A program made the translations under genes and the position numbers. Shown here piece after piece: positions 40,094 through 62,831 of a stretch of 64,000 nt of DNA; the stretch's first letter is position 1; each line of letters starts with the position of its first letter. This stretch comes from Dehalococcoidia bacterium (lineage in GTDB: Bacteria; Chloroflexota; Dehalococcoidia; GIF9; UBA5629). Under the pieces are notes generated by a model. That model was not told the origin of the DNA. It made no database searches and saw nothing but the letters and a program-made list of their open reading frames with translations. The stretch covers positions 15,725-79,724 of the forward strand of contig DAOTWF010000027.1 in the NCBI GenBank assembly GCA_034435835.1. The letters are read 5' to 3'.

Positions 40094-40122
40094 TGGTGAC
40101 CTCCTGCAAATTCTTTTCAGCT

Positions 40123-40926: not shown

Positions 40927-40969
40927 TTTTCACCTCCTTAAAGATTTCCTACTTGTCAGCCGAGGATTT

Positions 40970-40998
40970 ACTTTAGGACAAATCGTACTTTTTGTCAA
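40970..40998 (-). promoter_or_regulatory. etfBA promoter with an internal GACAAA-N8-TTTGTC palindrome
   Basis: TTGACA-N17-TAAAGT on the minus strand; palindrome at 40977-40996. Confidence 0.6.
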
Positions 40999-41000
40999 AT

Positions 41001-41867: not shown

Positions 41868-42934
41868 AGTTCAATCTTAGCAAGCTGTCTAGCCTGTTCT
41901 TCGGCAGCCAGAGCTTCTATCAGTTCGTCTAGTTCACCATCTAGTATTTGTGGCAGGTTGTGAAGTGCCAGGTTTATGCGGTGGTCTGTAACCCGATCTT
42001 GGGGGAAATTGTAAGTACGGATTTTTTCAGCACGTTCACCGCTGCCTATCTGTGAGCGGCGCTCAGCGGTGATCTCCTCCAGCTTTTTGCGCTGCTCTCT
42101 ATCAAAGAGGCGAGCACGAAGCACTGCCATGGCTTTCATTCGGTTTCTAAGCTGGGAGCGCTCATCTTGGCAGGTCGCCACTATCCCGGTGGGCAAGTGG
42201 GTAATACGCACTGCGGTGGTTACTTTGTTCACATTCTGTCCCCCGGCGCCCCCGCTGCGAAAGAACTCTATTTTTAAATCGTCTGGATTGACGGATATTT
42301 CCACCTCTTCAGCTTCGGGGAGTACAGCAACGGTGGCTGTCGAGGTATGAATGCGGCCGGATGCTTCAGTAATAGGAACCCTTTGCACACGGTGTACACC
42401 CCTTTCGTACTTCAGGTACCTGAAAGCCCCTTTGCCCCTAACTTCAAAGACGATCTCCTTAAAACCTCCGAGGTCTGTCTGGTTACAATCGATGACTTCT
42501 ATCTGCCATCCCTTTTTTAGGGCATAGCGGCTATACATGCGGAAAAGATCAGCAGCGAACAGGGATGCCTCTTCTCCACCAGCCCCGGCCCGTATCTCCA
42601 TGATTACGTCTTTGTCCTGATTGGGGTCTTTGGGAAGCAGGGTAAGTTTCAAGTCCTGGAGTACGGTCTCCCTCTGTTTCTTGAGGTTGCTTATTTCCTC
42701 CTTTACCAGAGCTGTCATCTCCGGGTCCAGCCCATCGTCAAGCATGGCTTGGGTCTCTTCCAAGTTCCTGGTTATAGCCTTGTACTGGCGGTACCTTTCG
42801 ACTATGTCCTCGAGGCTGGCACGTTCCTGTGCCACAGATTGAAGGCGTGCAGGGTTGCCCGATACCTCAGGCTGAGCTATCAGGTTATTTAATTCCTCGT
42901 ATCTTCTTTCAATGGCTTTAAGTTTTTCAAACAT
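41864..42934 (-). CDS. prfA: Peptide chain release factor 1
   Basis: [12 protein letters not shown] (PxT), GAGGQNVN; start placed at ATG 42934. Confidence 0.97.
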
Positions 42935-43002
42935 AGTGTTCAACCAAGAATTATAGCACAGCTTCGGAAGGTTTGCTCCGTGGCGTGCAGATTCACCATC
43001 TA

Positions 43003-43031
43003 TTGACAGAAACCGCATGTTGGTGCATAAT
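43003..43031 (+). promoter_or_regulatory. rpsP promoter
   Basis: TTGACA-N17-CATAAT. Confidence 0.65.
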
Positions 43032-43064
43032 ACGGTGCAAAAAAGAAGGCGTTATTCGATAGCT

Positions 43065-43325
43065 ATGGTGAAGATAAGATTGCGTCGCATGGGGTCAAGA
43101 AATAGACCTCTGTACAGGATGGTGGTCGCTGATTCAAGATCACCGCGAGACGGTGCTTTTATTGAGGTCATCGGACACTACAATCCACTCACTGACCCGG
43201 AGACAGTTGTCATCGACGAAGAAAAGGCTTTGAAATGGTTAAGTCGTGGAGCTAAGCCGACAGATACTGTTTCAAGATTGCTGGCTAAGTGTGGGGTTAT
43301 GGAAAAGCTCGGTTCCAGGGAATAA
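43065..43325 (+). CDS. rpsP: 30S ribosomal protein S16
   Basis: [10 protein letters not shown]...[22 protein letters not shown]. Confidence 0.97.
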
Positions 43326-43390
43326 CCACAGCGTTGACGGAAGAGAAAACTCCGCAGTGTGGATAAATCGATGGTTGAGGAGATAGTGCG

Positions 43391-43621
43391 ATGAAGGACA
43401 TGATCGAGTATATTGCAAAATCCATAGTTACCTTGCCTGAGGAGGTTCGTGTTACCGAAGAAGCCGATGATAAAAACCGGGTTATTGTAAAGCTGGAGGT
43501 GGCGGCGGCTGATAAGGGCAGGATTATTGGTCGTCAGGGAAGGGTGGCTGAAGCGATGCGAACACTTTTACGGGTGGTCGGTACCAGGGAAGGTGTACGA
43601 ACCCGTCTGGAGATATTGTAG
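43391..43621 (+). CDS. KH-domain RNA-binding protein (KhpA/YlqC-like)
   Basis: DKGRIIGRQGR GxxG loop; position after rpsP. Confidence 0.92.
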   Translation: MKDMIEYIAKSIVTLPEEVRVTEEADDKNRVIVKLEVAAADKGRIIGRQGRVAEAMRTLLRVVGTREGVRTRLEIL

Positions 43622-43680
43622 ACAATCAATTTGCTCTTCGGTCTAACTGGGTGAAAGAGGGGGCTAGTTAAAACTTACAG

Positions 43681-44114
43681 TTAGGGTTGTGTGGGGGTTG
43701 ACGGCGGTCTACGTCGTCTTTTTTCCGCAACTTTTAGTCGAATCAATGAGCGTCGCAGGGCAGCTTCTACTTGTGAAATATCGGTCCCGGGTGGATGTGT
43801 TTTCAGTAGCTGTTCAGCCCTCTCCTTGGCTGTTTGAGCCCGTTCAATGTTGATCTCCTCAGCCCGTTCGCAGGCGTCTGCTAGAATTATGACCTTGTCC
43901 GGCCGCACTTCGAGGAAGCCACCAGAGATAGCCATGTATATTTCCTCGTTATCTTTCCTGATGAGCAATTCTCCGGGCTTGAGGATGGTCATCAATGGTG
44001 CATGATGGGGCAGTATGCCAAGCTCGCCCTCGATCCCTGGTGCGACAACCAGACTGACTTCGTCTGCGAATACCTGGCGCTCAGCGGTTATGATTTCCAA
44101 ACGCATAGTCGGCA

Positions 44115-44115
<1 letters not shown>
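43681..44115 (-). CDS. atpC: ATP synthase epsilon
   Basis: [35 protein letters not shown] pattern. Confidence 0.96.
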
Positions 44116-45521
<1,406 letters not shown>

Positions 45522-46382
45522 TTAAGAGTGCAAGGCTTCAGCACCTCCGGTGAGGTCAAGAAGCTCCTTGGTGATCATTTCCTGTCTTGCTTTATTCAGG
45601 ATCAGAGTTAGTTCTTGGATAACTTGGTTGGCATTGTCAGTAGCATTGCGCATAGCCACCATACGTGCCGACTGTTCGCTCGCGATTGCTTCAAGTATGG
45701 CATGGTATACAGACATTTCCACAAACCGGGGTAGAAGTTCGTTCAGTACAAAGCTGGGATCAGGCTCATATATGTATTCCGCAGTCTGTGTTTTGGGCAG
45801 AATTGCTGGCTCGACAGGAAGTAAAGGTTCTATTCTTGGTTGTTGTGCCATTGTGGTGATGAAACGGGAGTAGGCTATATAAACTTGGTCAATATAACCG
45901 CTAGTATAGTCATCGATTATGATGTGTGATATCGGGAGTGTGTCCAGCAATGAGGGGCGATCGCCGATGTTGGTAAACTCAGCCCTGATATCGAGATGGT
46001 GGCGGTGCATGAAGTCCCGCCCTTTGCGCCCCACGGTGATGAGCGTTACCGGCACTTTTTGTTCCAGAATGAAGTTGGTCGTCAGACGGTTCATGTTTGT
46101 GTTCAACCCACCACAAAGGCCCCGGTCGGTGGTGATATGCACTATGGCAACTCTTTTGACTGGCCTTTTTTCGAGCAGGGGGTGGAAAGCCCCGTCTTTT
46201 GAGGCAGTAGCCGCCAGGTCAGCGATTACTTGGATTATCTTTTCGCTGTATGGGCGTCCTGCCAGTGCCTGTTCCTGAGCGCGCCGCATTCGTGCAGTAG
46301 CGATCATTTCCATAGCCTTGGTGATTTTGGCTACATTCTGCACGCTGCGAATGCGACGGCGCAAAAGTCGTGGGCTGATCAT
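45522..46382 (-). CDS. atpG: ATP synthase gamma
   Basis: KITKAMEMIA, TDRGLCG, SEQSARMVAM.NA.DNA, ARQ..IT.EL. Confidence 0.98.
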   Translation of the reverse strand: MISPRLLRRRIRSVQNVAKITKAMEMIATARMRRAQEQALAGRPYSEKIIQVIADLAATASKDGAFHPLLEKRPVKRVAIVHITTDRGLCGGLNTNMNRLTTNFILEQKVPVTLITVGRKGRDFMHRHHLDIRAEFTNIGDRPSLLDTLPISHIIIDDYTSGYIDQVYIAYSRFITTMAQQPRIEPLLPVEPAILPKTQTAEYIYEPDPSFVLNELLPRFVEMSVYHAILEAIASEQSARMVAMRNATDNANQVIQELTLILNKARQEMITKELLDLTGGAEALHS

Positions 46383-46384
46383 GT

Positions 46385-47896
46385 CTATAAGCTCATAGTC
46401 TTTTTGAATTCCTGGATCGCTTTCTTCAAGACTTCTTCGGTCTCAGGCTTTATCTCCTTGTCTGTAGCTATGCGTTTGCCAATTTCGGGATGATTGGTCT
46501 CTATGAACTGGTGAAAGTTCTGCTCAAAAGCAGCTACTTTGTCGACAGGTACGTCGTCAAGGTAACCATTGACAACAGCGTAAAGTATGGTCACCTCTTT
46601 CTCCAAAGGCATTGGTGCATATTGTGGCTGTTTTAGTACCTCAGTGATGCGCTGTCCACGTTCCAGTTGAGCCCTAGTAGCCTTATCCAGATCGGCGGTA
46701 CCGAATTGAGCGAAGGTGGCAAGTTCCCTGTATTGAGCCATTTCCAGTCTGAGTCTGCCAGCCACCTGTCTCATAGCTCTTGTCTGGGCGTTGCCGCCCA
46801 CCCTGGATACTGAGAGGCCTGCGTTTAGTGCTGGACGGATACCAGCGTTGAAAAGGTCCGTCTCAAGATATATTTGTCCATCGGTGATGGAGATAACATT
46901 GGTTGGGATGTATGCAGCGAGGTCACCTGCCTGGATTTCGATTATGGGGAGGGCAGTAAGCGACCCTCCACCGTATTCCGGTGCCAGTTTTGCAGCCCGT
47001 TCCAACAGGCGGCTGTGGAGGTAGAAGACGTCGCCAGGGTAAGCCTCTCTACCAGGTGGGCGCCTCAGTATTAGAGAAATCTGGCGGTAAGCCCAAGCAT
47101 GTCTGGTCAGGTCATCGTAGACAATGAGCGCATCTCTACCCTGCTCCATGAATTCTTCGCCTATGGCGCAGCCAGAGTATGGTGCCAAGTATTGCAGTGG
47201 TGCTGGGTCAGAAGCAGTGGCTACCACGACCACCGTATGTTCCATGGCACCGTAGCGTTTCAAAATGTCTATCACCTGGGCTACCTTGGAGGTCTTTTGC
47301 CCGATTGCCACATAGATACAGATGAGGTCACCGCCTTTCTGTGCGATGATGGTGTCTATAGCTATGGCTGACTTGCCAACGGAGCGATCGCCTATAATCA
47401 GTTCGCGTTGTCCCCTGCCGATGGGTATGAGGGCATCGACTATCTTTATACCGGTGTGGACAGGTGTATTAACCGGCTGTCGCATGACCACATTTGGCGC
47501 CACTCTCTCTACAGGGCGAGTTTTTGTGGCTTTTATGGGACCAAGGTCATCCAAAGGATTGCCCAAGGGGTCTATGACTCTCCCTATCAACTCATTGCCC
47601 ACTGGCACCTCTACTACTCTGCCAGTGCTCCTCACCTCATCACCCTCTTTAATCTGGCTGTGGTCGCCAAGGACCACGGCGGCAACACAGTCTTCTTCGA
47701 GGTTGAGTGCTAGCCCCATGATGCCGTTCGGAAATTCGACAAGCTCATTGTACTTGGCACCTTGCAACCCCTGTATACGTGCCACCCCGTCGCCGACTTC
47801 GATAACGGTGCCCACATCCACCATGCTCACTGTGGCACCGAACTGTCTGATCTGCTCCTTAATTATGGATACTATGTCTCGTTCTCTAGTTGTCAT
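46385..47896 (-). CDS. atpA: ATP synthase alpha
   Basis: [51 protein letters not shown]. Confidence 0.99.
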
Positions 47897-47915
47897 ATTG
47901 TCCTCCTGAATGGCA

Positions 47916-48455
47916 TCATCTTCTAACCCCGGATAGAGTCTTCTTGAGAGCCTGCAACCTACTTCGGATGCTGCCGTCGATTAAGCTGCTGTCGATCCGG
48001 GCAATGAAGCCACCTATGATGTCAGGGTCTACTTCCAGATTCAATACGACTTTTCCGCCGGTGGCTGATTCCAGATATTTTTTGATGTTCTCTCTTTCTG
48101 CATCGCTCAGCGGGATAGCTGTGATGACGTCAGCGTGTTTTATGCCACGTTGCTCGTCGAGTAGGCGTCCGTAGGATTGAACCACCTGTTCAAGCTCTCT
48201 GAATTTCCCTTTTGCGATGAGGAAGCAAGCGAGGTTTAAAGGTAGCTGGCTTATTCCTGTCAGTCTTTCCCGCAGTAGCTTCAGCTTGAAGTCCAGAGGT
48301 ATTTTTGTGTTCTCAGCAAATTTGGTTATCTCTGGTTCTGCAGCCAGTTTTGCCATTTCTGTTAACTCGGAATGCCATTCTTCAAGCTTACCGTTTTCCT
48401 TGGCAAGCTCGAACATGGCTTCGGCGCAGCGTCTGGCAAAAGTTGTTGCTGGCAT
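47916..48455 (-). CDS. atpH: ATP synthase delta
   Basis: [30 protein letters not shown]. Confidence 0.93.
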
Positions 48456-48469
48456 AAACTAGTCCTGTA

Positions 48470-48967
48470 TTACTCTTTAAGCAAAGGGCTTTCTTTTAGT
48501 GTTTCTTCGATAAGTCTGCGGTGCTTCTCCTTGTCGAGAGTCTCCCTGATCACCTTTTCTGCAGCCATCACGGCGATGTCGGCGAATTCGTGGCGTAGCT
48601 CCTCGATTACTTTATCACGCTCCTGCTGTATTTCCGCGCGCGCTTTGGCGATGATGGCTTCGGATTCTCTGCGAGCACTCTCTTTGGCCTCCTCTCTAAG
48701 TCTTTCTCCCATCTGGGCTGCCTGAGCTATGATTGCCTGCCCTTCTTGGCGGGCCCTTTCTATCTGTGCCTTTATTTCCTCTTCACTGCGTGCTGCTTGC
48801 TGCTTGATCTGTTCTGCCTGTTCCATGGCTTCTCTGATCCGCGCTTGTCTCTCGTCAAGCATCCTGAGCACCGGTTTGTACAGGACGATGCTAAGGAGCA
48901 AGAAGAGGATAATAAAGTTGACCAGAAAAGCCAGCAGGAGCGGTAGATTTATCCCAATACCTTCCAT
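48470..48967 (-). CDS. atpF: ATP synthase subunit b
   Basis: N-terminal TM ending YKPV...LDERQ, then an Ala/Glu-rich coiled coil. Confidence 0.96.
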   Translation of the reverse strand: MEGIGINLPLLLAFLVNFIILFLLLSIVLYKPVLRMLDERQARIREAMEQAEQIKQQAARSEEEIKAQIERARQEGQAIIAQAAQMGERLREEAKESARRESEAIIAKARAEIQQERDKVIEELRHEFADIAVMAAEKVIRETLDKEKHRRLIEETLKESPLLKE

Positions 48968-48998
48968 ATCACTCCATTTACTATCTCAACTTCGGTTC

Positions 48999-49124
48999 TC
49001 AGTCTGCCGGAATGAACGAACCAATGATAAAAGCGGTGATAAGAAGCCCGGCGAAGACTATGGCGCCTACTATTATGGCTCCAACTATGACACTCAAGGA
49101 AGTCGGCAGATTCCCATTTTCCAT
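48999..49124 (-). CDS. Unannotated 41-aa single-TM protein inside the atp operon
   Basis: SD AGGAGG 6 nt before the ATG; MENGNLPTSLSVIVGAIIVGAIVFAGLLITAFIIGSFIPAD*. Confidence 0.7.
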   Translation of the reverse strand: MENGNLPTSLSVIVGAIIVGAIVFAGLLITAFIIGSFIPAD

Positions 49125-49154
49125 ATTTTTCCTCCTGACTGCCTTAGCGCTTGG

Positions 49155-49385
<231 letters not shown>

Positions 49386-49399
49386 CTACGAACCTCCTT

Positions 49400-50359
49400 C
49401 TAAGAATGTTCCCCTTCGGTGTGGGGTGTTAAAGCTATAATACCAAATACCAGAGTTAGCCCGGCAAAGATCAGCGCCTGAATAAAACCGATAAGTAGTT
49501 CCAGCCCATAGAATGGTATGGTGGCGATGAATGGGACGAGGAAGCAGACGACGAGCAGCAGTATCTCACCTGCTGTCATGTTACCAAAGAGACGGAAGGT
49601 AAAGCTGATGATGCGGATAAAGTGACTGAAGACTTCAAGGAAACCGACGAACAGGTTTATGAAACCGAAGGCGATGCCAGTGATAGCTGGCCTTATTTTT
49701 CCTCTGAAAAGATTGGCAATGCCTTCGCGGAGTTGACCCAGGTTAAAGAAACTGTTCAAGTAACGCAAGGCTCCCAATGATCTCAATCCCCAGTACTCCA
49801 CGAAGATGAACGACATGATAGCGATGGACAAAGGCACGTTTATGTCAGTATTAGCCGAGCGGAAGAGCGGCACGAAGGTGTCGGCGGCTTCTTTGATGCC
49901 GATGGCGCCGAAGAATGGTAGCAGAGCCATATAGGCGTTGGTGATGACATAGAGAAAGATGGTGGCGACAATCGGGAAAAGGGTGCGGGCGTTCTTCTCA
50001 CCGGCTGCGCCCTGGATAAAATTAAGCAGACTTTCCACAATCAGCTCAGCAAAGTTCTGGAGCCTGTCTGGAACGAGTTTCATCTTGCGGGTACAGAAGG
50101 CAAAGAGCACGACTAGCACTATTATAGTAAGCCATGATGCCAGCAGAGTATTGGTGATGACGAATATGTGGTTTATATGGATGACACCTTCTGCCCGAAG
50201 TTCCACGTGGGGCTTAGGGACGCTAATAAAGCTAGGTACTTGGATGCCCAGCAGTTTAGAGCCTATGGGACCGACAACGAATCCTACAACCAATAAAGCT
50301 AGCAGGACGATGGCTATCCAAGCCAGTATCCTGACTGAGCATCCCGGTCCCATGTTCAT
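49400..50359 (-). CDS. atpB: ATP synthase subunit a
   Basis: TFRLFGNMTAGE, FIQALIFAGL. Confidence 0.96.
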   Translation of the reverse strand: MNMGPGCSVRILAWIAIVLLALLVVGFVVGPIGSKLLGIQVPSFISVPKPHVELRAEGVIHINHIFVITNTLLASWLTIIVLVVLFAFCTRKMKLVPDRLQNFAELIVESLLNFIQGAAGEKNARTLFPIVATIFLYVITNAYMALLPFFGAIGIKEAADTFVPLFRSANTDINVPLSIAIMSFIFVEYWGLRSLGALRYLNSFFNLGQLREGIANLFRGKIRPAITGIAFGFINLFVGFLEVFSHFIRIISFTFRLFGNMTAGEILLLVVCFLVPFIATIPFYGLELLIGFIQALIFAGLTLVFGIIALTPHTEGEHS

Positions 50360-50682
50360 TTCGCTGCGTCTTTATTTCTGCTTTTCTCGAGTTTTTGTTG
50401 TTCCAGATAGAACTGTCTCAACATACGGTAGAGGCCATAGAACGCCACTACTGTGCCTATGCCAAACCCTATCAGCGTAAACAGTGGCTTTTTGTTGAGG
50501 TTTTCCGGTCGGTCGAGCCAGAGGCCGATGCCGGACGGTATCGCCAAGCTGAGGGCTACATACCAGCCCACGCTGAAAAGGAACCAAAGCGGACGTACCC
50601 ATTCCTTCTTCTGTTGAACTTTCTGTCCGCCTCCTCTAGTTACACCCAAGTTCTCTCCCTCAATTAGCAGTGCTACTGCCAT
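50356..50682 (-). CDS. AtpZ/AtpI-family (ATPase gene 1) protein
   Basis: Two TMs with GIGLWLD and G...G...AFYGLYR; first gene of the atp operon; start uncertain. Confidence 0.8.
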   Translation of the reverse strand: MAVALLIEGENLGVTRGGGQKVQQKKEWVRPLWFLFSVGWYVALSLAIPSGIGLWLDRPENLNKKPLFTLIGFGIGTVVAFYGLYRMLRQFYLEQQKLEKSRNKDAAK

Positions 50683-50873
50683 ATACCGATCACCTGTGTT
50701 TCTAAGCGGCTTTTCATGTAACCCGCAGCTAGCTATGTCAAAAACTTTGCTTTTTACCTCCATCCGATTTCAGTTTATCGGATAGCCGTATTTTTTCATC
50801 GGACTTAAGCCTGATTTTTGTCTGCGCCGAAGGGGCTGGTTAACCCATGTGGCTGTGGCTTCATGGGTGAGGT

Positions 50874-51668
50874 TCAGGACTTGCGTTTACCTAGGTCATC
50901 TAGGTCAAGGGTATTGATAAAGTCGTAGAACGCTGATAGCTTCTTCAGTTCCAGTTCGTCGAGTTTTTCCCTGTTCTCGAATTTGTCTCTATCGCTCTCA
51001 GCAGCTTTTTCAGCAGGTATCGGTTTTCCAGTCTCGCGATCTAGGAAAATGCCAGCTTTGTCCAGCACTGATTCCTCCACATATATTGGAACCGTGGCTC
51101 TAACTGCCAGAGCAATGGCATCGCTGGGGCGGGAGTCAAGTTTAATCTTGCTGAGTAGCCATTCTTTACCCTCCTTGCGGGACCAGACTTCAAAGACGAG
51201 ACCGTGCTCAGTAGCTATTTCCAGAAAATGGTGGTTTTTCTCCTGCCAGCGGTTGATTATTTTACCTTTATATTCCTTGCTCTGCCAGACAATGTATGCT
51301 GTGGTTTCCTCTCCATAACCGCGGTACTGAGAGCGCTCGTGAGGGAACCTGACATCCACAGGGCTGGGACTCTCTGTGGGCTCAAATATGATCTGTGCGT
51401 AAAAGGTGTCGGATCGGAGGTCATTAACCACAATTCTGCTAACAATGGTCCCGGAAGCAGCTTCTAGGGCGAGTATGGCATTCCTGAGCAGGTCGTGGGT
51501 CATGGGTCGTGCCAGGTCAACGTTTTGTAGCTTTATTGATATAGCATCTGCCTCTGCTGGTCCGATCCAGATGGGCAGGTAACGGTCTGACCTTTTCTCC
51601 TTCAATATTACCACGTGCTGGTAGTTCATCAAACTAACTCTGATGCTGTCGATGGTCATCTCGATCAT
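50874..51668 (-). CDS. Bifunctional nuclease (DUF151/BFN) family protein with an internal ~79-aa insertion
   Basis: LPIWIGPAEA, RPMTHDL, TFYA, DSRPSDAIALAVR; extra segment between FYAQIIFE and LDSRPSD; SD GGAGG. Confidence 0.88.
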   Translation of the reverse strand: MIEMTIDSIRVSLMNYQHVVILKEKRSDRYLPIWIGPAEADAISIKLQNVDLARPMTHDLLRNAILALEAASGTIVSRIVVNDLRSDTFYAQIIFEPTESPSPVDVRFPHERSQYRGYGEETTAYIVWQSKEYKGKIINRWQEKNHHFLEIATEHGLVFEVWSRKEGKEWLLSKIKLDSRPSDAIALAVRATVPIYVEESVLDKAGIFLDRETGKPIPAEKAAESDRDKFENREKLDELELKKLSAFYDFINTLDLDDLGKRKS

Positions 51669-51699
51669 GGGCTTTCCTCCCTTGTCCGCTACGGAAACC

Positions 51700-51728
51700 A
51701 TTCTACTCCATCGTTTTTTGGGTGTCAA
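51700..51728 (-). promoter_or_regulatory. Promoter for the BFN gene
   Basis: TTGACA-N17-TAGAAT. Confidence 0.7.
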
Positions 51729-51876
51729 TCGAAGGGTGAGAACTGTGAGCAAATTGCCTGTTGATGGGAGATAGCGCAGCATTCTCACTACCACTCCTAA
51801 GATTGGAAACATTTGTTACCTGGGGGCAGTATTGCGTAAAATTAGCCTTGTACTGTTTTATTTCAAGGCAGATATC

Positions 51877-52329
51877 ATGAAGGCTCTAGTGCAACGGGTG
51901 ACAAAAGCTTCGGTGACTGTTGATGGCGAGGTAGTAGGGGCAATAGGGCAGGGGCTGGTGATATTTGCGGGTGTGGCTAAAGGGGACAGCGAGAAAGACG
52001 CTTTGTATCTTGCCGAGAAGGTAGTTAACTTGCGCATCTTCTCTGACGAGGCGGGAAAATTCAACCTTTCGGCGCTTGATGTAAGTGGCGAACTTTTAGC
52101 CATCAGCCAGTTCACACTGCTTGCGGACACCCGCAAAGGGCGAAGGCCCAGTTTTGAAGACGCGGCACCCCCGGACGAAGCCGAACCATTGTTTGATTTT
52201 TTTGTTGACTGCCTGCGCAAAAGTGGACTGAGGGTCGAAACTGGCCGCTTCCAGCAACACATGCTTGTAGAGATATACAACGACGGACCGGTGACAATAG
52301 CGCTTGATAGCAGGGAAAAGTTTTCTTGA
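51877..52329 (+). CDS. dtd: D-aminoacyl-tRNA deacylase
   Basis: [25 protein letters not shown]. Confidence 0.97.
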
Positions 52330-52345
52330 TTTCAATGGCTTGCTG

Positions 52346-52361
52346 TAGCAAATAGTTGCAA
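52346..52361. promoter_or_regulatory. Putative Fur-family operator 1, overlapping the -35 of fur
   Basis: TAGCAA-ATAG-TTGCAA; the TTGCAA also serves as -35 of TTGCAA-N18-TACAAT. Confidence 0.5.
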
Positions 52362-52394
52362 AAAGTTCGGCATAACTGCTACAATTTTCTTGGT

Positions 52395-52823
52395 ATGAGC
52401 TGTGGTCAAATACTGAGGGGGATGGGATACCGCCTGACACCGCAGCGGATGATGGTGGTTGAGGTACTGCACGGCACCGATAAGCATATCAGTGCTGAGG
52501 AAATATTTGCTCAGGTACAAGCCAGATATCCGTATGCCAATATCTCTACGGTATACCGTACGCTTGATCTCTTGAAGGAACTGGGGCTGGTCGCCGAGAT
52601 ATCTCTGGGCGATGGGTGTGTCCGTTTTCACCCAGTGGACAAGGGTCACCACCACCATCTGGTATGCCAGAGTTGCCGCAAAGTGGTCGACATACCAGAG
52701 ACTGCGCTAACACCTCTTGCCGAAGGCCTGAGTAAAGAATACGGCTTTAAGGTGGAGCTGCGGCATATGGCTATCTCTGGTTTGTGTGCTGAGTGCCAGA
52801 AACAGACAGCACAGCAAGCCTGA
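52395..52823 (+). CDS. Fur-family metalloregulator
   Basis: RLTPQR, HISAEEI, STVYRTL, HHHHLVCQSC, GLCAEC. Confidence 0.95.
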   Translation: MSCGQILRGMGYRLTPQRMMVVEVLHGTDKHISAEEIFAQVQARYPYANISTVYRTLDLLKELGLVAEISLGDGCVRFHPVDKGHHHHLVCQSCRKVVDIPETALTPLAEGLSKEYGFKVELRHMAISGLCAECQKQTAQQA

Positions 52824-52851
52824 GACTGAGCAATTATATTTTTGCGTTCTG

Positions 52852-52867
52852 GCGCAATAGTTTGCAA
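52852..52867. promoter_or_regulatory. Putative Fur-family operator 2, upstream of nikM/cbiM
   Basis: GCGCAA-TAGT-TTGCAA, the same GCAA-N4-TTGCAA core as operator 1. Confidence 0.5.
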
Positions 52868-52900
52868 TTGCGCTTAATGCAGAAAAGTAAGGAGGCAGAT

Positions 52901-53542
52901 GTGCATATCCCGGATGGTTTTATAAGTACACCTGTGGCTGTGGGAGGGATAGCTATAGCTGCTGGTACGGTAGCCTATGCTGTCAAGGCGACGAACAGGA
53001 GGCTGGGAGAAAAACAGGTGCCGTTGATGGGTGTACTGGCGGCATTTATCTTTGCTGCCCAGATGCTCAATTTTCCTGTGGCTGGGGGCACTTCGGGGCA
53101 CTTTATGGGGGCAGCGTTGGCGGCGATACTATTGGGACCATGGGCTGGACTTCTGATAATGACGTGTGTCCTCTTGGTGCAGTGTCTGGTGTTCCAGGAT
53201 GGCGGGCTTCTAGCTCTGGGTGCCAATATTATCAATATGGGAATTGTCGGTTGCTTTCTAGGGTATTATATTTACCGCGGTTTTACTGCGCTGGTGCGTG
53301 GTAAAAAAACGGCTTTGATTGGTGGAGGTATAGCTGGCTGGGCATCGATTGTGGTGGCTGCTATTTTCTGTGCAATGGAGCTAGGTATTTCCAGTACTGT
53401 GCCCCTGTATGTAGCGCTTCCGGCGATGGGTGGCATTCATGCGCTCATTGGAATCGGTGAGGGACTGATAACAGCGGCGGTGCTGGCGCTGGTGATGGCT
53501 ACCAGACCCGACCTGATGAAGCTGGAGCCACAAAAAACTTAG
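52901..53542 (+). CDS. ECF transporter S component NikM/CbiM
   Basis: GTG start after AAGGAGG gives N-terminal MHIPDGF; FAAQMLNFP, GTSGH, LGANIINMG. Confidence 0.93.
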   Translation: MHIPDGFISTPVAVGGIAIAAGTVAYAVKATNRRLGEKQVPLMGVLAAFIFAAQMLNFPVAGGTSGHFMGAALAAILLGPWAGLLIMTCVLLVQCLVFQDGGLLALGANIINMGIVGCFLGYYIYRGFTALVRGKKTALIGGGIAGWASIVVAAIFCAMELGISSTVPLYVALPAMGGIHALIGIGEGLITAAVLALVMATRPDLMKLEPQKT

Positions 53543-53561
53543 AAAGGGGGTCTCAAAGGCT

Positions 53562-53846
53562 ATGAAATTCCAGTGGTGGCATGGCGCTTTAATAGCCAGT
53601 TTTATCTTGGCATTGCTGTCGCCAGTAGCATCATCGTCCCCCGATGGACTGGAGCGAGTGGCTGAAGATAAGGGGTTCATAGAGGCAGCCAGAGAATCAT
53701 GGTATGAGCTTATCCCCGACTACACAATGCCTGGCATTGGCAGTGAGGTGCTGGCTACTGTAATTTCCGGCGTGCTCGGCACGGCGCTATTGTTCGGCAT
53801 AGGTTACGGGATTGCCAGAGCGTTGAAGGCGAGAGATGAAACATAG
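53562..53846 (+). CDS. PDGLE-domain protein (NikN-like)
   Basis: SSSPDGLERVAE...PDY, two TMs. Confidence 0.9.
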   Translation: MKFQWWHGALIASFILALLSPVASSSPDGLERVAEDKGFIEAARESWYELIPDYTMPGIGSEVLATVISGVLGTALLFGIGYGIARALKARDET

Positions 53847-54615
53847 CTTTGTAGACCAGTACTGTGATTTAAACAGCTTTATCCACAGGCTTGATCCTAG
53901 GACAAAGTTTGTTGTCAGCCTTGCTTTTATTCTGGCAGTGTTGCTGACTCCGGCTGGCGAGTGGTTGATGTTTGCTTTTTATTTTCTGGTTGTTTTGGGG
54001 TTACTGGCTCTCTCCAAGTTGCCGCCTTTTTATGTCGTGAAACGGTCGCTGGTTGTTATCCCCTTTGTCCTGCTGGTGGCTGTTTTCATTCCGTTCTTTA
54101 AGGAGGGCGAGGTGGCTGGCAGCTATAATATCTGGCTGTGGGAGATATCGGTCACCTACAGCGGGCTTTTTGTGCTGGCGAATGTTGTGGCAAAGGCTTG
54201 GCTGTGTATCCTCTGTCTAATCTTGCTATCTTCGACCACTAGACTGGCTGAGTTACTGAAGGGGCTATGCCAGCTTGGCGTTCCTCAGGTCGTAGTATTG
54301 ATACTTTCCTTCATGTACCGCTATGTTTTCGTTCTGGTGGACGAGGCGATGAGAATGCATCAGGCATATCAGAGCCGGGATATTGGTGGAAGCCTGCTGC
54401 GCCGGTTGAAGGCGTTCGGCAATATGATCGGCGTCCTTTTCATCAGAAGTTATGAGCGTGGGGAGAGGATTTACGCGGCAATGGTATCTAGGGGTTTTGA
54501 TGGGCAGGTGCGCACATTGCGCCCTTTGGAATTGAAGGGCGCTGATATCTCTTTCAGTGTAGTTTTGGGAATTTTGTTGGCGTCACCTTACATCATCTGG
54601 TGGGTTCGATGGTAG
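53836..54615 (+). CDS. ECF transporter T component NikQ/CbiQ
   Basis: HRLDPRTK, MYRY..VL.DEA.RM..A..SR, RSYERGERIY.AM.SRGF. Confidence 0.93.
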   Translation: MKHSFVDQYCDLNSFIHRLDPRTKFVVSLAFILAVLLTPAGEWLMFAFYFLVVLGLLALSKLPPFYVVKRSLVVIPFVLLVAVFIPFFKEGEVAGSYNIWLWEISVTYSGLFVLANVVAKAWLCILCLILLSSTTRLAELLKGLCQLGVPQVVVLILSFMYRYVFVLVDEAMRMHQAYQSRDIGGSLLRRLKAFGNMIGVLFIRSYERGERIYAAMVSRGFDGQVRTLRPLELKGADISFSVVLGILLASPYIIWWVRW

Positions 54616-55325
54616 ACAGAGTCATCTATATCAAAGACCTCTCTTTCGTTTACCCAGATGGGACTCATGCTTTAAAAAAGATAAGTCTTTCTGTTTATGC
54701 TGGCGAGAGTGTGGCAATAGTCGGTCCAAACGGTGCCGGGAAATCTACATTACTCCTCCATCTCAATGGGGTGTTACGCGGAAATAGCACGGTGGAGATA
54801 TGTGGCATCCCTGTCAGGGATGGAAATTTGAAGGAGATAAGGAAAAAAGTGGGGCTGGTGTTCCAGGACCCAGATGACCAGCTCTTTTCTCTGACTGTTT
54901 TCGAGGATGTGGGTTTTGGACCGTTGAATATGGGTTGTTCTGAGGCCGAGGTAAATGAACTGGTTTCTCGAGTGCTGGGATGGGTGGGGATGAAGGGGTA
55001 CGAGAAGCGTTCCCCGCACCATCTGAGCATCGGCGAAAAGAAGCGGATCGCCATCGCTACCGTGCTGGCGCTTGATCCGGAGGTCTTGGTGCTTGACGAG
55101 CCTACAAGCAACCTCGACCCCAGAAGCAAATGGTCCCTGGTGACGCTGTTAAGGCACCTCCTAGTGACCAAAGTAATAGCCACTCACGACCTCGAATTGG
55201 TGCGCGTTTTATGTCAGCGTGTAGTTGTGCTGGATAAAGGTGAGGTGGTAGCTGACGGCACTACTGAGACTATTCTCAATGATCTGTCACTCTTGCGGGC
55301 ACACGGACTAGCACCTGAGGACTAG
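54609..55325 (+). CDS. ECF transporter ATPase NikO/CbiO
   Basis: GPNGAGKSTL, VFQDPDDQ, LSIGEKKR, LDEP. Confidence 0.94.
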   Translation: MVDRVIYIKDLSFVYPDGTHALKKISLSVYAGESVAIVGPNGAGKSTLLLHLNGVLRGNSTVEICGIPVRDGNLKEIRKKVGLVFQDPDDQLFSLTVFEDVGFGPLNMGCSEAEVNELVSRVLGWVGMKGYEKRSPHHLSIGEKKRIAIATVLALDPEVLVLDEPTSNLDPRSKWSLVTLLRHLLVTKVIATHDLELVRVLCQRVVVLDKGEVVADGTTETILNDLSLLRAHGLAPED

Positions 55326-56185
55326 TCCAGTTCTAGGCTGATATCCAGCGCTCTGGCTGAGTGGGTGAGCGCGCCTACCGATATCATGTCCACACCGGTT
55401 TCTGCTATTGCCCGAATCCTCTCAAGAGTGACCCCGCCTGAGGCTTCAACAAGGGCACGCCCTTTTATCAGTTGCACGCTGTGGCGCATGTCTCCCAGGC
55501 TCATATTGTCCAGCATGATGATGTCGGCACCAGCTTCAGCGGCTTCACGTGCCTCTTCGGGTGTTTTTACCTCTATCTCGACCTTTGTTCCCGGTGGCAC
55601 CTTGTGGCGGGTCTGAGCAATTATTTCCTTTATGTTTTTACCGCTGCGGCGCAGTACTGTCAGGTGGTTGTCCTTTATAAGGATGCCATCGCCGAGATGC
55701 ATACGGTGGTTCCTACCGCCGCCGAGCCTAACGGCGTATTTTTCCAGTAGCCGCAAGCCCGGTGTGGTCTTTCTGGTGTCGGTTATGCTGACAGGGAGCC
55801 CACTGACTGCCTGAATGTAGCGTGCTGTCTCTGTGGCGATGCCGCTCAGATGTTGCAGGAAGTTCAAAGCCAGGCGTTCGGCTTTCAACATGCTGGAGAC
55901 TCTTCCTTGCAGTCTGGCTACGACGTCTCCGGGCTTGACCTTGCCGCCGTCTTTGATGAGTAGTTCGATATGAAGTTCGGGGTCGACCCTGAGAAAGACC
56001 TCCCTTGCTATTTCGATCCCGGCGATGATGCCCTCAGCCTTGGCTAGGATGTAGGCAGTCCCACGTTCGGAATCTGGTATCAGTGAGTCAGTGGTTATGT
56101 CCCCGTGACTGAGATCCTCTTGCAAGGCTAGCTCAATAAGCTGCCCTATTTGATGGACGTCCAGACCGCCTTCCAGACTATTCAC
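55322..56185 (-). CDS. nadC: Nicotinate-nucleotide pyrophosphorylase (quinolinate phosphoribosyltransferase)
   Basis: DTRKTTPG.R..EKYAV..GGG.NHR, LIKDNH, IMLDNM, ASGG, SVGALTHS. Confidence 0.96.
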   Translation of the reverse strand: MNSLEGGLDVHQIGQLIELALQEDLSHGDITTDSLIPDSERGTAYILAKAEGIIAGIEIAREVFLRVDPELHIELLIKDGGKVKPGDVVARLQGRVSSMLKAERLALNFLQHLSGIATETARYIQAVSGLPVSITDTRKTTPGLRLLEKYAVRLGGGRNHRMHLGDGILIKDNHLTVLRRSGKNIKEIIAQTRHKVPPGTKVEIEVKTPEEAREAAEAGADIIMLDNMSLGDMRHSVQLIKGRALVEASGGVTLERIRAIAETGVDMISVGALTHSARALDISLELD

Positions 56186-56657
56186 TGCTGTCTTCTTGCA
56201 GTTCCTGCAAAATCATGTTAACACATGCGGATACTGCTTTTCTAACCGGGGCAGTGAATTCCTCACCGAAGGTGCTGACATCTGCTGCTTCGATAGCGTA
56301 GATGGTTATCTTTTGAGGCAGACGTAAGCCAAGCCTGCTGCCAAGTTCGAGGGCTGTCCTGAAGTCGATGCCGTGTGGAGAGGTAATGTGATCGGCAGTG
56401 TCGAATGCCTCGGGTGTGAGTCTGTAGATCTGCCCCGGTGTACCCCCGACTGTCTGGATGGCATCTATTATGATTGCTTGGTCATAGCCGGTGAGCAAAT
56501 CGAGCAGGACAAGCCCTGTTGTTGCCGTCTCCGCAACTGTGACATCAGGACGGCTGATTTTCTCTCTCAGCGCCGCGGCAACATAAAGCCCCGCACCGTC
56601 ATCGGTGAGCAGGGAATTGCCTATCCCCAGTATCAGTATCTTCCCTCTATCAGGCAC
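56178..56657 (-). CDS. Hydrogenase maturation endopeptidase (HyaD/HycI-like)
   Basis: ILGIGN.LLTDDGAG, IIIDA, SPHG. Confidence 0.93.
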   Translation of the reverse strand: MPDRGKILILGIGNSLLTDDGAGLYVAAALREKISRPDVTVAETATTGLVLLDLLTGYDQAIIIDAIQTVGGTPGQIYRLTPEAFDTADHITSPHGIDFRTALELGSRLGLRLPQKITIYAIEAADVSTFGEEFTAPVRKAVSACVNMILQELQEDSSE

Positions 56658-56693
56658 TAAAACAGTTCTGCTCTAAACTTCACCAAGGACACC

Positions 56694-58154
56694 TTATCTT
56701 TTTAGCCTCTCCACTACTTCGCCCTTGCTGTTATAGATAATAATCTCCATCGGTGCTTGTCCCGGTAGGGAATGAGTGGCGCAAGCAAAGCAAGGGTCAT
56801 AGGGGCGCCATGCCATCTCTATGCGGTTGAGCAACCCCTCGGTTATTTTCTTGCCCGGCTGGATAAGTGCCATGGCTGCTTTTTTGATTGACATGTTAAA
56901 TGCTGCGGAGTTGCCCACAGTGGCTACAATCAGGTTTGCCTTTTTGATCACGCCTTTCTCGTCTGTAACATAATGATGGATCAAGGTACCGCGTGGGGCT
57001 TCGACGATGCCGAAGCCCTCGTCCGGTTTAGCTGTAGGGATGGTTCGGATGTTGGGGCTGGTGATCTCAGGGTCACGGCTCAATTCCAAAAGCCTTTCGG
57101 CAGCGTAGAGGAGCTCAACAAGCCTGGCCCAATGCATAGCTAAAGTATGGTGCACCGGCTTGCTCCCAAGTGTGGAGTACATCTTCTCGTAAGCCTCCTG
57201 AGCCAGTGGTGTCGCCATGCCATCAGCAGTGTTGAGGCGGGCAAGCGGTGCCACACGGTAGACACCGCTGTCCTTACCGTCTACAAAGCCTTTCCAGCCA
57301 ATCTTCTTCAGGAAGGGGAACTTGATGTAGCTCCAGGGCTCGACGTGCTCGGCGATGTGGTCCAAGTACTCTCGTGGTGAGAACTTGGCAAACTCCTTAC
57401 CATCAGGATCCACCACCCTGACTTTGCCATCGTAGAAATTCACCTTGTTCTTGTCATCTACCAAGCCCATGTAGTAGGTGCGGTGGGTATAGGCTTCGCT
57501 CAGGATCATATCGACATATTCTTTATTCTTCAGTACGATATCGTCGAAGACTTTAAGGGAAAGCTTCGCGAATTCTACAGAATCTTTGGCAATTTGCTCT
57601 ACCTCTTTTCGTTCCTCTTCGGTGAGACCTTTGCTGATGCCCCCCGGAAGCCCGAAGACAGGATGCACAGCCCTACCGCCGAGCATGTGGATGATACGGT
57701 GGTTCTGCATTCGCGTCTTTATCACGGCTCCGCCAAGTTCCAGTCCGACCTTGGCGATGACGCCGAGGATATTGCGCTCTGCTACCGGGGCCTCGGGGCC
57801 CATGATAAAGTCTGGACCGGCGAGGATATAGAAGTGGGTGGTATGGTCGGTGACATAGAATGCACTGTAGAAAAGCTCGCGTAGCTTTTTGGCAGGACTC
57901 GGCGGGTCGACATGGAAGAGGTCATCAAGGCATTTAGTCGCTGCAATGTGGTGCGCTTCAGGGCAGACACCGCAGATACGCTGGGTAATCTGTGGCATGT
58001 CCTCAGCTAGACGCCCTTCACAGAATTTTTCGAATCCTCTCAGCTCTGGCACTTGGAAATAGACATTTTCCACACCGCCAGCATCATTGAGGAAGATTTC
58101 GATCTTGCCGTGTCCTTCCAGACGAGTGATCGGATCAATGGTGATCTTCTTCAT
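56694..58154 (-). CDS. mvhA: [NiFe]-hydrogenase large subunit, group 3c (MvhA-like)
   Basis: ITRLEGHG, RICGVC (L1), EAPRGTLIH, YDPCFACATH (L2) plus a cleavable tail. Confidence 0.95.
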   Translation of the reverse strand: MKKITIDPITRLEGHGKIEIFLNDAGGVENVYFQVPELRGFEKFCEGRLAEDMPQITQRICGVCPEAHHIAATKCLDDLFHVDPPSPAKKLRELFYSAFYVTDHTTHFYILAGPDFIMGPEAPVAERNILGVIAKVGLELGGAVIKTRMQNHRIIHMLGGRAVHPVFGLPGGISKGLTEEERKEVEQIAKDSVEFAKLSLKVFDDIVLKNKEYVDMILSEAYTHRTYYMGLVDDKNKVNFYDGKVRVVDPDGKEFAKFSPREYLDHIAEHVEPWSYIKFPFLKKIGWKGFVDGKDSGVYRVAPLARLNTADGMATPLAQEAYEKMYSTLGSKPVHHTLAMHWARLVELLYAAERLLELSRDPEITSPNIRTIPTAKPDEGFGIVEAPRGTLIHHYVTDEKGVIKKANLIVATVGNSAAFNMSIKKAAMALIQPGKKITEGLLNRIEMAWRPYDPCFACATHSLPGQAPMEIIIYNSKGEVVERLKR

Positions 58155-59110
58155 TTTATCCTAGCCCTCCTTAACAGAGAATCAGGCAGACTATATCGGT
58201 AGAAAGTGCCCACAGGGTCACAGATATCGTCGATAATTTTCTGTATCTCTTCAGGGTTGTTGGCATCGATCACCGAGGCAACTGCGCTGAGGAAGTGTGC
58301 TCCCTGGTCAATTACCCCCTCTACGGGACCGTAGCAGCCAGTGCAGGGCATGTTAGCCTGCGGACAGGGCGCGCCACAACCACCCCTGGTGGCGATGCCG
58401 GCACAGAGCAGCCCCTGCTCCAGAAGGCACACCTCGGCGTCGGGTATAATTTCGAAGGTGCGGTAGAATTTTTTCACCTTCTTTACGTCCCGCTTCCGCG
58501 GGCAGTCATCACAAACCGCCTTGACGCTGTGGCTGATTACCGTGCCTTTGGGCGGTAATTTCCCCTGAATTAGTGCTTCCAGAGCCAACCAGGTAGTTTT
58601 TTCCTCCGGCGGGCAGCCGGGGATGACGTAGTCTATCTCGACGGTCTGACGCAGGGATCTGACGGTATCGTAAAACTCGGGAATGGTGAGCTCACCCTCC
58701 GGTACCTTAAACTTGGTCTGGGGAAAGACTTTTTCCTTGTTGTCTGTAGACTGAGTTTCCAGGTAAACCTGTTTGAAAATCAGCTCTCTATTAAACATAT
58801 TGCCTAAGCCAGGGATACCGCCATTGTGAGCACAGGAGCCGTAGGCGATCATCACCTTGGACTTTTCTCGCAGCATCTTTGCCAGATGTTCCTGCTCTGA
58901 GTTCCTGATGGCGCCATTGAATAGGCAGACATCTATGCTCTTATCGGGCATTGCCTCCACGTCCTTATATTTGACGTCGATAGCCACAGGCCAGAAGACT
59001 ATATCTGCGGCTTCAGCCAGCTTGAGTATCTTGTCTCCGATCTGTAGCTGCGCGATTTCGCAGCCACCGCAACTGGCTGCCCAGTAGAGCGCTACTTTAA
59101 GTTTAGCCAT
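58151..59110 (-). CDS. mvhG: [NiFe]-hydrogenase small subunit (MvhG-like)
   Basis: SCGGCE, GSCA..GGIPG, PGCPP, CDDC, CLLEQG..C.G..TRGGC...C......C.GCYG. Confidence 0.94.
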
Positions 59111-59528
59111 GTTTTGCCTCCTTGGAGTTCTTCCCGAAAGGGCCTAAGGCTCTGACTTTTTCGGTCATCTCGTCAACGATGGCAACGAAGCGATCGCCTT
59201 CGGATGCTGACACCCAGTCAAGCCGCACGCGGTCCTCTTCGATTCCCATCTGGGCCAGCATCTTTTTGAGCAGTGGCATACGGCGCGCTGTTTTATAATT
59301 GCCCTCGACGTAGTGGCAGTCACCCGGGTGACAGCCTAGAACAAGCACGCCGTCAGCCCCCAGTTCGAAGGCTTTGAGGACAAAAGTCGGCTCCACACGG
59401 CCGCTGCACATAACCCTGATTATACGCACATTGGGCGAACATTTCATCCTGGCGGTGCCAGCTAGATCGGCTCCTCGATAGGAGCACCAGTTGCAACAAA
59501 AGCCGACTATTTTTGGTTCGAAGCTCAT
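59103..59528 (-). CDS. mvhD: MvhD/FlpD [2Fe-2S] adaptor, Cys form
   Basis: [24 protein letters not shown]; ATG overlaps the hdrA stop (ATGA). Confidence 0.95.
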
Positions 59529-61486
59529 ACTAATACCCCCTCGATTTCTGCCATTATTTCTTCGGTGGTGAAATGCTTCTGTGTGATCGCTGCGCTGGGG
59601 CAGGCGGCAACACAGGTGCCACAGCCCTTGCACAGCGCTTCGTTTATTCTCGAGACCTCTTTGTCTTCGATGAAGGTTATGGCGTTGTACGGGCAGAGGA
59701 TGTTACAGACCCTGCAGCCAGAACACTTCTCCTCATCGATTACAGCCACGGTGGCTTCAAGCTCGACCTTGCCCTTGCTGATTAGACTTAGCACTCTGGT
59801 GGCGGCGGCGGAAGCCTGCGCTACTGTATCGGGGATGTCCTTGGGACCCTGGCAGCAGCCGGCGATGAATATGCCGTCTGTCATAGTAGCTACCGGGTCA
59901 AGCTTGGGATGTCTCTCGATGAAGAAGCCGTCTGCCCCCTGGCTGATGCGGAATAACTGGGCTACCTGCTTGGCATCAGAGCGTGGCTCAAGCGCTATGC
60001 ACAGTATCACCATATCCACCGGGACGCGGATCACCTGACCGAGCAGGGTATCCTCGCCGCAGACGATGAGTTTTCCCTTCTCTTCATTGGTCAATGCCCT
60101 GTCGGTGACCTCAGCCGCCTTGCCGCGGATGAACTTAACACCCTCTTTGGACAGTCTCTCGTAGAACTCCTCGTAGCCTTTGCCGAAGCAGCGCATGTCG
60201 ATATACATCTGGTAGACATCAGCTTCGGTCTTTTCTTTAATAAGATGGGAGTACTTGAGGGCGTACATGCAGCATACTCTGGAGCAATAGCGGTGGTAGT
60301 TTTCATCTCGGCTGCCCACGCAATGGATGATGGCGACGCTCTTTGGCTCCGAGCCGTCTCTGAGAACTATCCTGCCGCCCGTAGGACCGGCAGCGTTGCA
60401 CAGCCTTTCAAACTCCAGGGCGGTGTAAACGTTGGGGTAGCGCCCGTAGCCGTATTTGACGATGGGCGTGGGGTCGAAGGGGTCATAACCGGTGGCGATT
60501 AGGATGTTGCCGACCTCAAGTTCCACAATCTTGTCCTGCTGTTCGAAGTCTATGGCGCCGGGCTCGCAGAACTTCTCACAGGCACGGCACCTACCTTTGA
60601 GGAAGTAGACGCAGTGCTCTTTATCTATCACAGGTATGTTGGGAACTGCCTGCGGGAAGGGTGTGTAGATGGCTTTCCGTTCGCCAAGCCCCAGGTCGAA
60701 TTCGCTGGGCGCCTTCCACGGGCATTTCTCCATGCAGACACCGCAGCCGTTGCACTTTTCCTCATCGACAAAGCGGGCCTTCTTGCGGACTTTGACCTTG
60801 AAGTTCCCAATGAACCCCGAGACCTCCTCAACCTCGCTGTAGGTCATCAGTGCGATATTGGGATGAGAACCGGCTGCGGTCATTTTGGGCGTCAGGATGC
60901 AGGCGGAACAGTCCAAGGTGGGGAAGGTCTTATCGAACTGGATCATGTGTCCGCCGATGCTCGGGTCCTTTTCCACCAGGTATACCTTGTGTCCGGCATC
61001 GGCGATCTCCAGGGCGGCTTGGATGCCGGCAATGCCACCGCCGACTATCAGCGTTGCCGGGTTTACCGGCACCTCTTTCGTCTCCAGAGGCTGGTGGTAG
61101 CGAACGCGTTTCACCGCAGCGCTGACCAGTGCCTTTGCCTTCTCTGTGGCTTTGTCATGGTCTTCGGTTGTCCAGGAACAGTGCTCGCGGATATTTGCCA
61201 TCTCAAAGAGATAGGGGTTCAGCCCGGCTTCCTGTACGGCGTGGCGGAAGGTGGGCTCGTGGAGGAGCGGTGAGCAGGAGGCGACCACCACCCTGTTGAG
61301 CTTTAGGTTCTTGATGTCCTCTTTTATCATGTTCTGCCCCGGGTCGGAGCACATAAACTTGTATTCTCGAGCCACCACCACCGAGTCCAGCTTTTTAGCA
61401 AATTCCACCACATGCTGTACGTCAACGGTACCAGCTATATTAGAGCCACAGTGGCATACATATACTCCGATCTTCGGTTTCTCCAT
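59525..61486 (-). CDS. hdrA: Heterodisulfide reductase subunit A-like flavoprotein (copy 2)
   Basis: [52 protein letters not shown], ferredoxin inserts. Confidence 0.96.
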
Positions 61487-61518
61487 CGCGTCTCCTCCTT
61501 TAACTTGCTGCGACCTCA

Positions 61519-62673: not shown

Positions 62674-62715
62674 TTTTCACCCTTCCTTTCCTTGAGTATT
62701 AAGAAAGCGGTGGAA

Positions 62716-62744: not shown

Positions 62745-62831
62745 GAGCCGTGCTAGAAGGGTGGCTACAATGGAATATTGAAGACAGCGTCTTTCCCAGT
62801 TAGCCAACCGCTGAGCCGTTACTCCTATGGT

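Follow-up and report, generated by a model that had tools for sequence, protein, structure and literature searches.

The gene studied here lies on the reverse strand of a stretch of 64,000 nucleotides of Dehalococcoidia DNA (positions 1..64000, referred to as the window) and encodes a member of the BFN/DUF151 family. A longer ORF of 312 aa (50874..51812, (-)) was set aside and the ATG at 51668 was taken as the start, because the N-terminus that it gives, M[IKR]EM[TQ]IDSIRV, is common to all 120 listed homologues (MIEMTIDS or MKEMQIDS). The gene, its parts and the operon that follows it are as follows:

51700..51728, (-): σ70-like promoter match TTGACA-17-TAGAAT, 11/12, about 32 nt 5' of ATG 51668 (consensus match only)
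50874..51668, (-): BFN/DUF151-family gene, 264 aa plus stop (ORF list, start shared with homologues, Pfam BFN_dom)
51381..51668, (-): N-terminal part of the BFN core, aa 1-96, ending in the hairpin strand FYAQIIFE (Pfam, TM0160, pLDDT 74-93)
51138..51380, (-): nested DUF6504-like domain, aa 97-177 (boundaries from comparisons with insert-less orthologues)
51147..51311, (-): part of the nested domain with statistically supported homology, aa 120-174 (hhalign columns 24/25-78, HMM alignment, joint conservation table)
51024..51137, (-): C-terminal part of the BFN core, aa 178-215, with the family motif DSRPSDAIALAV (TM0160 residues 118-156)
50877..51023, (-): disordered linker, aa 216 to about 237, then a conserved C-terminal helix with the motif ELKKLSAFYDFINTLDLDDLGKRKS (pLDDT, orthologue alignment)
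43681..50763, (-): F-type ATP synthase operon (atpI-like, a, c, b, delta, alpha, gamma, beta, epsilon), directly 3' of the BFN gene

The Pfam domain BFN_dom (PF02577) scores 120.1 bits on the protein against a cut-off of 27, in a match that falls into two stretches, the first of which (residues 20-107) covers model positions 1-82 of 112. A sequence profile aligned TM0160 of Thermotoga maritima (PDB 1sj5/1vjl), the prototype of DUF151/BFN_dom, to the window protein in two blocks as well, TM0160 residues 29-103 and 118-156 (E 9e-27). The motifs PIWIG, RP(M/L)THDL and DSRPSDA are invariant in our alignment of BFN proteins (A3), with D178, R180, P181, S182 and D183 unchanged throughout, and they also align to TM0160, which shares the core fold and the sequence PxWIG…RPLTHDL…DSRPSDAI with the window protein. 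In contrast, TM0160 lacks the long linker and the C-terminal LSAFxDFINTLDLDDF helix, and its hairpin loop of about 14 residues compares with a folded domain of 78-81 residues in the window protein. In the AlphaFold2 model, pLDDT falls below 50 at residues 221-246 and 252-264, and a helix is predicted at 238-252. On these comparisons the window gene is the Dehalococcoidia orthologue of BFN/DUF151, with a core like that of TM0160, then a flexible linker and finally a conserved docking-type helix at the C-terminus. The C-terminal motif (M/L)SAFxDFINTLDLDDF (50877..50957, (-)) stands behind the charged, disordered linker and is kept both with and without the insert (L005-L084); it looks like a short docking helix, and in plant relatives a UVR domain occupies the same position.

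The gap between the BFN gene and the atpI-like gene is 110 nt, and a search of this gap in the window for a terminator-like site found none. The BFN-atp order is kept in three divergent insert-bearing relatives (L085-L087), even where the upstream neighbour has changed, and atpB follows at a distance of no more than 2.5 kb, in the same orientation, in 54/67 loci with enough downstream sequence, insert or not; this neighbourhood may be relevant to the role of bacterial BFN proteins. Divergent from the BFN gene are dtd (D-aminoacyl-tRNA deacylase) and a gene for a Fur-family regulator (window 51832..53542, (+)); in two of the three relatives the dtd/Fur pair is followed by a CbiM/CbiQ/ABC cobalt-type transporter (L085, L086), while mfd stands there instead in L087. 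An Rfam scan of the whole 64-kb window (1..64000) gave no family at gathering score.

When an HMM was built from insert-less orthologues, it matched the window protein in two blocks, residues 2-108 and 175-264, and this, together with the reading of the orthologues themselves, places a segment of about 78-81 residues where insert-less orthologues have a 5-residue LDGKQ hairpin turn. Around it the window protein reads FYAQIIFE-P…78 aa…-IKLDSRPSD, with the insert beginning PTESP and ending LLSKIKL, and the 78 residues are followed by IKLDSRPSDAIALAV. The insertion site is the tip of a β-hairpin directly before the invariant DSRPSD motif, the most conserved of the family. An earlier note on this DNA had proposed that the short β-turn of BFN proteins is replaced here by an inserted domain at 51144..51380 (-), which is residues 97-175 of the 264-aa protein; these coordinates are right, and the replacement of the turn is borne out by the split Pfam match, the TM0160 alignment and the insert-less orthologues. 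The same in-frame insert is present in independent NCBI, JGI, ENA and Logan assemblies, and the residues W128, W141, E150, G156, F159, W170, L171 and L172 within it are invariant or nearly so.

The insert was compared with the product of a second gene in the window, a small free-standing protein to which the earlier note had aligned it by eye. This gene lies in the following context:

34806..35081, (-): free DUF6504 gene, 91 aa (Pfam DUF6504, PF20114, 32.5 bits against a cut-off of 24.2, E 1.1e-7)
34330..34809, (-): AsnC/Lrp-type regulator gene, whose likely start codon and the stop codon of the free gene overlap as ATGA (ORFs)
33103..34314, (-): aminotransferase gene, 3' of the AsnC/Lrp gene (ORF list)

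In a single BLASTP comparison the insert matched the free protein (34806..35081) over 60 residues with E 7e-5 and 28 % identity, and an HMM of 119 distinct inserts scored 34.3 bits on it; a 65 %-identical relative received 42 bits from this HMM. Profile-profile comparison with hhalign gave 97.8 % and E 1e-12 against three free sequences, and 98.9 % and E 2.3e-17 over 54 columns against 62 free members, so that the HHalign check suggested by the earlier note proved significant. A search of 1.84e9 representative proteins with the insert profile, run with no word filter (threshold E≤1e-3), gave 18 matches: one BFN representative with insert, 13 free proteins and four long repeat proteins, the last of which look like compositional or repeat bias. 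The 13 free proteins (73-113 aa, E 2e-6 to 7e-4) have the common pattern VKCYSGHTYAERP-SF-WQG-EYK…IEKAWQEPG…F-V-T-D…FELCYNE…W. A word-indexed search with the free protein yielded two relatives, and the free family was reached via the insert profile and then by an alignment search. In the reverse direction, when the ORFs from all loci and from the window were scanned with an HMM of the free family, the window insert and those in L005-L007 were recovered (E 3e-4 to 6e-6). The window insert alone has no Pfam match at E≤1 and stays below the DUF6504 gathering cut-off; Pfam DUF6504 is touched weakly by 5/37 insert homologues, with a best E of 3.3e-5. Given the agreement of BLASTP, HMM, hhalign, the search of 1.84e9 proteins, the reverse search and the weak Pfam touches, we consider it confirmed, at the level of sequence, that the insert is a diverged copy of the DUF6504 family present as a nested domain, as the earlier note had supposed.

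Homology is demonstrable for the C-terminal 55 or so residues of the insert only (about 120-175, strands 2-6), where the supported motif is S-x-x-WQGKEYK…W-Q-E…F-x-E…DG-x-FEL…W-L-L, and pairwise identity with the free protein is 24-28 %. In its N-terminal strand and loop the insert has diverged, and it has there an extra low-confidence segment of about 22 residues that the free DUF6504 proteins lack. The by-eye register of the earlier note therefore stands in its C-terminal WQ…W-x-L part, whereas the N-terminal matches V-x-V and Y-x-GY hold for this particular pair and not for the insert family (Y118 is conserved in 43 % and G117 in 45 %). The free DUF6504 proteins of the Dehalococcoidia (P0121-P0251 and the window gene) share with the insert the pattern W-Q-G…W-Q-E…F-E-L…W-x-L and the order and lengths of the strands, but they differ from it in having invariant C22-Y-S-G, Y-A-E-R-P and C72-Y-N-E segments, all three of which the insert lacks.

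The free gene starts at ATG 35081 in the 91-aa reading, in which it overlaps the end of gatA by 28 nt; an alternative ATG at 35048 lies 6 nt past the gatA stop and gives a protein of 80 aa, matching the 73-82 aa of most relatives. The AAGGAG Shine-Dalgarno sequence of the AsnC/Lrp gene sits within the end of the DUF6504 coding sequence. The triad of DUF6504, AsnC/Lrp and aminotransferase genes, with gaps of 1-10 nt, was present in 6/6 independent contexts that were looked up (L001-L004, L088-L093), and gatC-gatA stands upstream of it in 5/6 (adjacent in four, with two extra genes between in one), one context having no gatCA; in the window this neighbourhood lies at 33103..36517 (-). The conservation of the triad in all contexts indicates that the free DUF6504 protein has an operon of its own. 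Within one syntenic block (BFN-atp-…-prmC-etf-…-gatCA-DUF6504), the BFN and free DUF6504 genes are separated by 16 kb, and in none of the contexts examined were they neighbours. In one Chloroflexota locus (L065) an insert-less BFN gene at 1047-1592 is accompanied by a free DUF6504 ORF at 9737-9988, about 8 kb downstream, and no atp operon follows the BFN gene. The free family comprises more than 1000 clusters at 90 % identity, with PF20114 precomputed on most relatives. Neither NCBIfam nor PADLOC gave a match on the BFN or the free protein, so that nothing points to a defence system. A literature search for 'DUF6504' or 'PF20114' found no paper, and several matches to 'DUF151' were dismissed as they concerned DUF1515 or DUF1513 instead. 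DUF6504 may also occur at the C-terminus of ImuB-type polymerases.

The AlphaFold2 model of the BFN protein (83-sequence alignment, mean pLDDT 77.9, pTM 0.72) contains the insert as an all-β unit of six strands (103-107, 123-128, 131-143, 146-153, 157-164 and 170-179), with pLDDT of about 86-93 over residues 120-180 and values below 50 within the insert only at residues 111-119. Foldseek matched the model to TM0160 (1vjl/1sj5) with E 1.3e-9 to 5.6e-9, probability 1.00 and a target-normalised TM of 0.77-0.83, in alignments of 208-212 columns for a target of 137-143 residues, as expected of an intact core with some 70 extra columns. The free protein, modelled independently by AlphaFold2 from 62 sequences, is likewise a six-stranded all-β unit, with residues 1-14 disordered. 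According to the hhalign alignment, strands 123-128, 131-143 and 146-153 of the insert correspond to strands 34-37, 40-53 and 56-63 of the free protein, and 157-164 and 170-179 to 68-74 and 79-86. The first strand of the insert follows directly on FYAQIIFE in the model, and the last, EWLLSKIKLD, is continuous with the BFN hairpin strand, so that the insert is predicted to be a rigidly attached β arm and not a floppy appendage. The AlphaFold check agrees with an independently folded insert on an intact BFN core. A sequence search of the PDB with profiles of the free family gave noise only (E>0.3), and Foldseek of the free-protein model against PDB and BFVD gave no match at E≤0.001, its top matches being generic β-meanders (kinase N-lobe, LolA) that were set aside as uninformative.

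While the scaffold is shared, the signature residues of the free family are not. The free-family invariants C22-Y-S-G, E48 and C72-Y-N-E are without a conserved counterpart in the insert (joint conservation table): the CYSG segment is absent, the column of Cys72 is most often R (38 %) among the inserts, and the one signature column that lines up is a proline (P32 of the free protein, P101 of the insert), which does so only where the mafft-profile alignment is ambiguous, in its N-terminal part. An insert without the CYSG and LCYNE motifs is unlikely to act as a competitor through the same functional site. Across the 62 free-family members (alignment A5) C22 (CYSG) and C72 (LCYNE) are both invariant, and both are gone from the nested copy; these two cysteines of the free protein could form a disulphide or belong to a metal or ligand site.

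We also compared the window gene with its relative L085 (83 % identical). Non-synonymous differences per site amounted to 0.016 for the core, 0.151 for residues 120-175 of the insert and 0.29 for the linker, with synonymous differences per site of about 0.6-0.8; as synonymous sites are saturated, dN/dS is to be read as a rough estimate only. Amino acid change in the insert is about ten times faster than in the core and nearly as fast as in the disordered linker. From these differences the insert appears to be under purifying selection, much weaker than that on the core, and its fast evolution is compatible equally with a tolerated decoration that has no function and with a partner-specific surface.

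The survey of databases and genomes shows that the insertion is confined to one clade. At least 120 clusters at 90 % identity carry the full-length insert (244-294 aa, query coverage 95-100 %; NCBI, JGI, ENA and Logan), and among 1.84e9 proteins the BFN protein with insert collapses to one representative at 50 % identity. In the genome scan, for which the 80 best GTDB-species loci are listed so that insert counts are a lower bound, only L005-L007 carry the insert, and the orthologue is insert-less, with 160-198 aa, in 77 of these best 80 loci (one truncated at a contig end). Insert-less orthologues of other Dehalococcoidia and Chloroflexota (such as L008, L016 and L042; 166-198 aa) are at most 72 % identical in the core, have the same C-terminal motif and mostly head an atp operon likewise, but differ by their LDGKQ-type turn of five residues and have no DUF6504-like domain. 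In a simple neighbour-joining tree of 180 core columns from 23 insert-bearing sequences and insert-less orthologues, all 23 insert-bearing sequences were monophyletic with no insert-less sequence inside the clade, and the nearest insert-less orthologue among those compared is 72 % identical in the core. As the site is the same, the inserts are homologous and their carriers form one clade, the sequences argue that the insertion most probably occurred once. The best matches of the insert outside BFN proteins fall in the Dehalococcoidia free subfamily to which the free gene of the window belongs, which makes this family of free DUF6504 genes, resident in these bacteria, the likely donor. In the precomputed annotation, the 120 listed relatives carry PF02577 alone, and the sources name them plainly 'bifunctional nuclease family protein'. 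The nested architecture is thus uncatalogued and lineage-specific, being confined to uncultured Dehalococcoidia of one narrow clade, and the domain insertion described in the earlier note has turned out to be real, a homologous folded domain on an intact BFN core that is not catalogued as a common form.

Members of the same Pfam family have been studied elsewhere, and by their descriptions neither Cor (Rv1829) nor the plant BBD and UVR-DUF151 proteins have a nested domain. Cor of M. tuberculosis, the product of a CO-resistance gene, is a dimeric protein consisting of DUF151 only, in which the subunit interface contains a conserved cleft, and it showed neither DNase nor RNase activity (PMC3870250). 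The name 'bifunctional nuclease' goes back to the nuclease activity of plant BBD1/2 (PMC7249048). Plant UVR-DUF151 proteins, which have a C-terminal UVR domain, are trapped by the ClpC1 unfoldase (PMC8889267), and a BFN protein of M. smegmatis is listed in a table of the ClpC1 interactome (PMC10433963). That bacterial BFN proteins are nucleases is unproven, and so is, for the same reason, the suggestion of the earlier note that the insert might confer a new substrate specificity; this suggestion presumes a nuclease and is weakened by Cor, which showed no such activity (PMC3870250).

We think it probable that the insert is a clade-specific β arm on the BFN protein, derived from DUF6504 and independent of the free protein. 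A diverged DUF6504 β-domain would have been inserted at the tip of the BFN hairpin in one subclade, and its scaffold would afterwards have been held by purifying but relaxed selection, with loss of CYSG and LCYNE. The arm would most likely offer a partner, be it a protein or a nucleic acid, an additional clade-specific surface to bind close to the conserved cleft. It probably adds no catalytic activity and is probably independent of the free DUF6504 protein, which would serve the AsnC/Lrp-aminotransferase operon.

The main rival, which we hold to be clearly less probable though a real contender, is that the hairpin tip is permissive and the insert a tolerated decoration, folded only so as to spare the essential core and with no function of its own. 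The length of the loop varies already, from five residues in Dehalococcoidia to about 14 in TM0160, and the insert changes at about ten times the rate of the core, near that of the linker, has lost the invariant motifs of the free family and is found in a narrow clade among the matches listed. Yet the full-length insert is present throughout 120 or more clusters (90 % identity), several of its residues (W128, W141, E150 and others) vary hardly or not at all, synonymous change clearly outweighs non-synonymous change, and no loss of the insert was seen within the clade (23 sequences, neighbour-joining tree).

The earlier note had also envisaged a two-part system, in which the free DUF6504 protein would bind, or compete with, the nested copy and so regulate the BFN protein. 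Both genes occur in one genome and in one syntenic block, 16 kb apart, and the common β-scaffold of the two models could in principle pair by strand addition, but we consider such a system unlikely: in every context examined the free gene is translationally coupled to the AsnC/Lrp and aminotransferase genes and not to BFN, its family of more than 1000 clusters is far more widespread than the insert, it occurs alongside an insert-less BFN gene in L065, and the insert has lost the signature residues with which a competitor would be expected to act. Chance resemblance, an assembly chimera or an intein-like mobile insertion would fit the low identity of 24-28 % and the lack of a Pfam match for the window insert alone at E≤1, but these explanations are effectively refuted by the strong profile statistics (hhalign, HMM and reciprocal searches), by the recurrence of the same in-frame insert across the independent NCBI, JGI, ENA and Logan assemblies, and by the nature of the insert, an all-β unit of 80 residues without intein termini (it starts P-T-E-S and ends …L-S-K-I-K-L). 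A search for intein or mobile-element features found neither an N-terminal Cys/Ser nor a C-terminal His-Asn with nucleophile, and no Pfam Hint/intein match.

A further idea, which we regard as very unlikely, is that DUF6504 is a small domain binding one partner or metabolite that has been put to use twice, in the AsnC/Lrp-aminotransferase operon and in the BFN protein at the atp operon; if this were true, one signal, such as amino acid or nitrogen status, would be read by both modules and coupled to energy metabolism. The finding of a β arm on the BFN protein does not by itself open a long-standing question; the architecture is limited to a narrow uncultured group and is unsurprising in kind. 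It does bear on the role of BFN/DUF151 proteins, for which nuclease activity in plants stands against its absence in the tests of Cor, and for which links to ClpC have been reported in plastids and mycobacteria. The BFN-atp and DUF6504-AsnC/Lrp-aminotransferase neighbourhoods offer testable functional hooks, and the grafted clade and its sister lineages with a 5-residue turn form a natural pair, with and without the domain, for probing what each domain binds.
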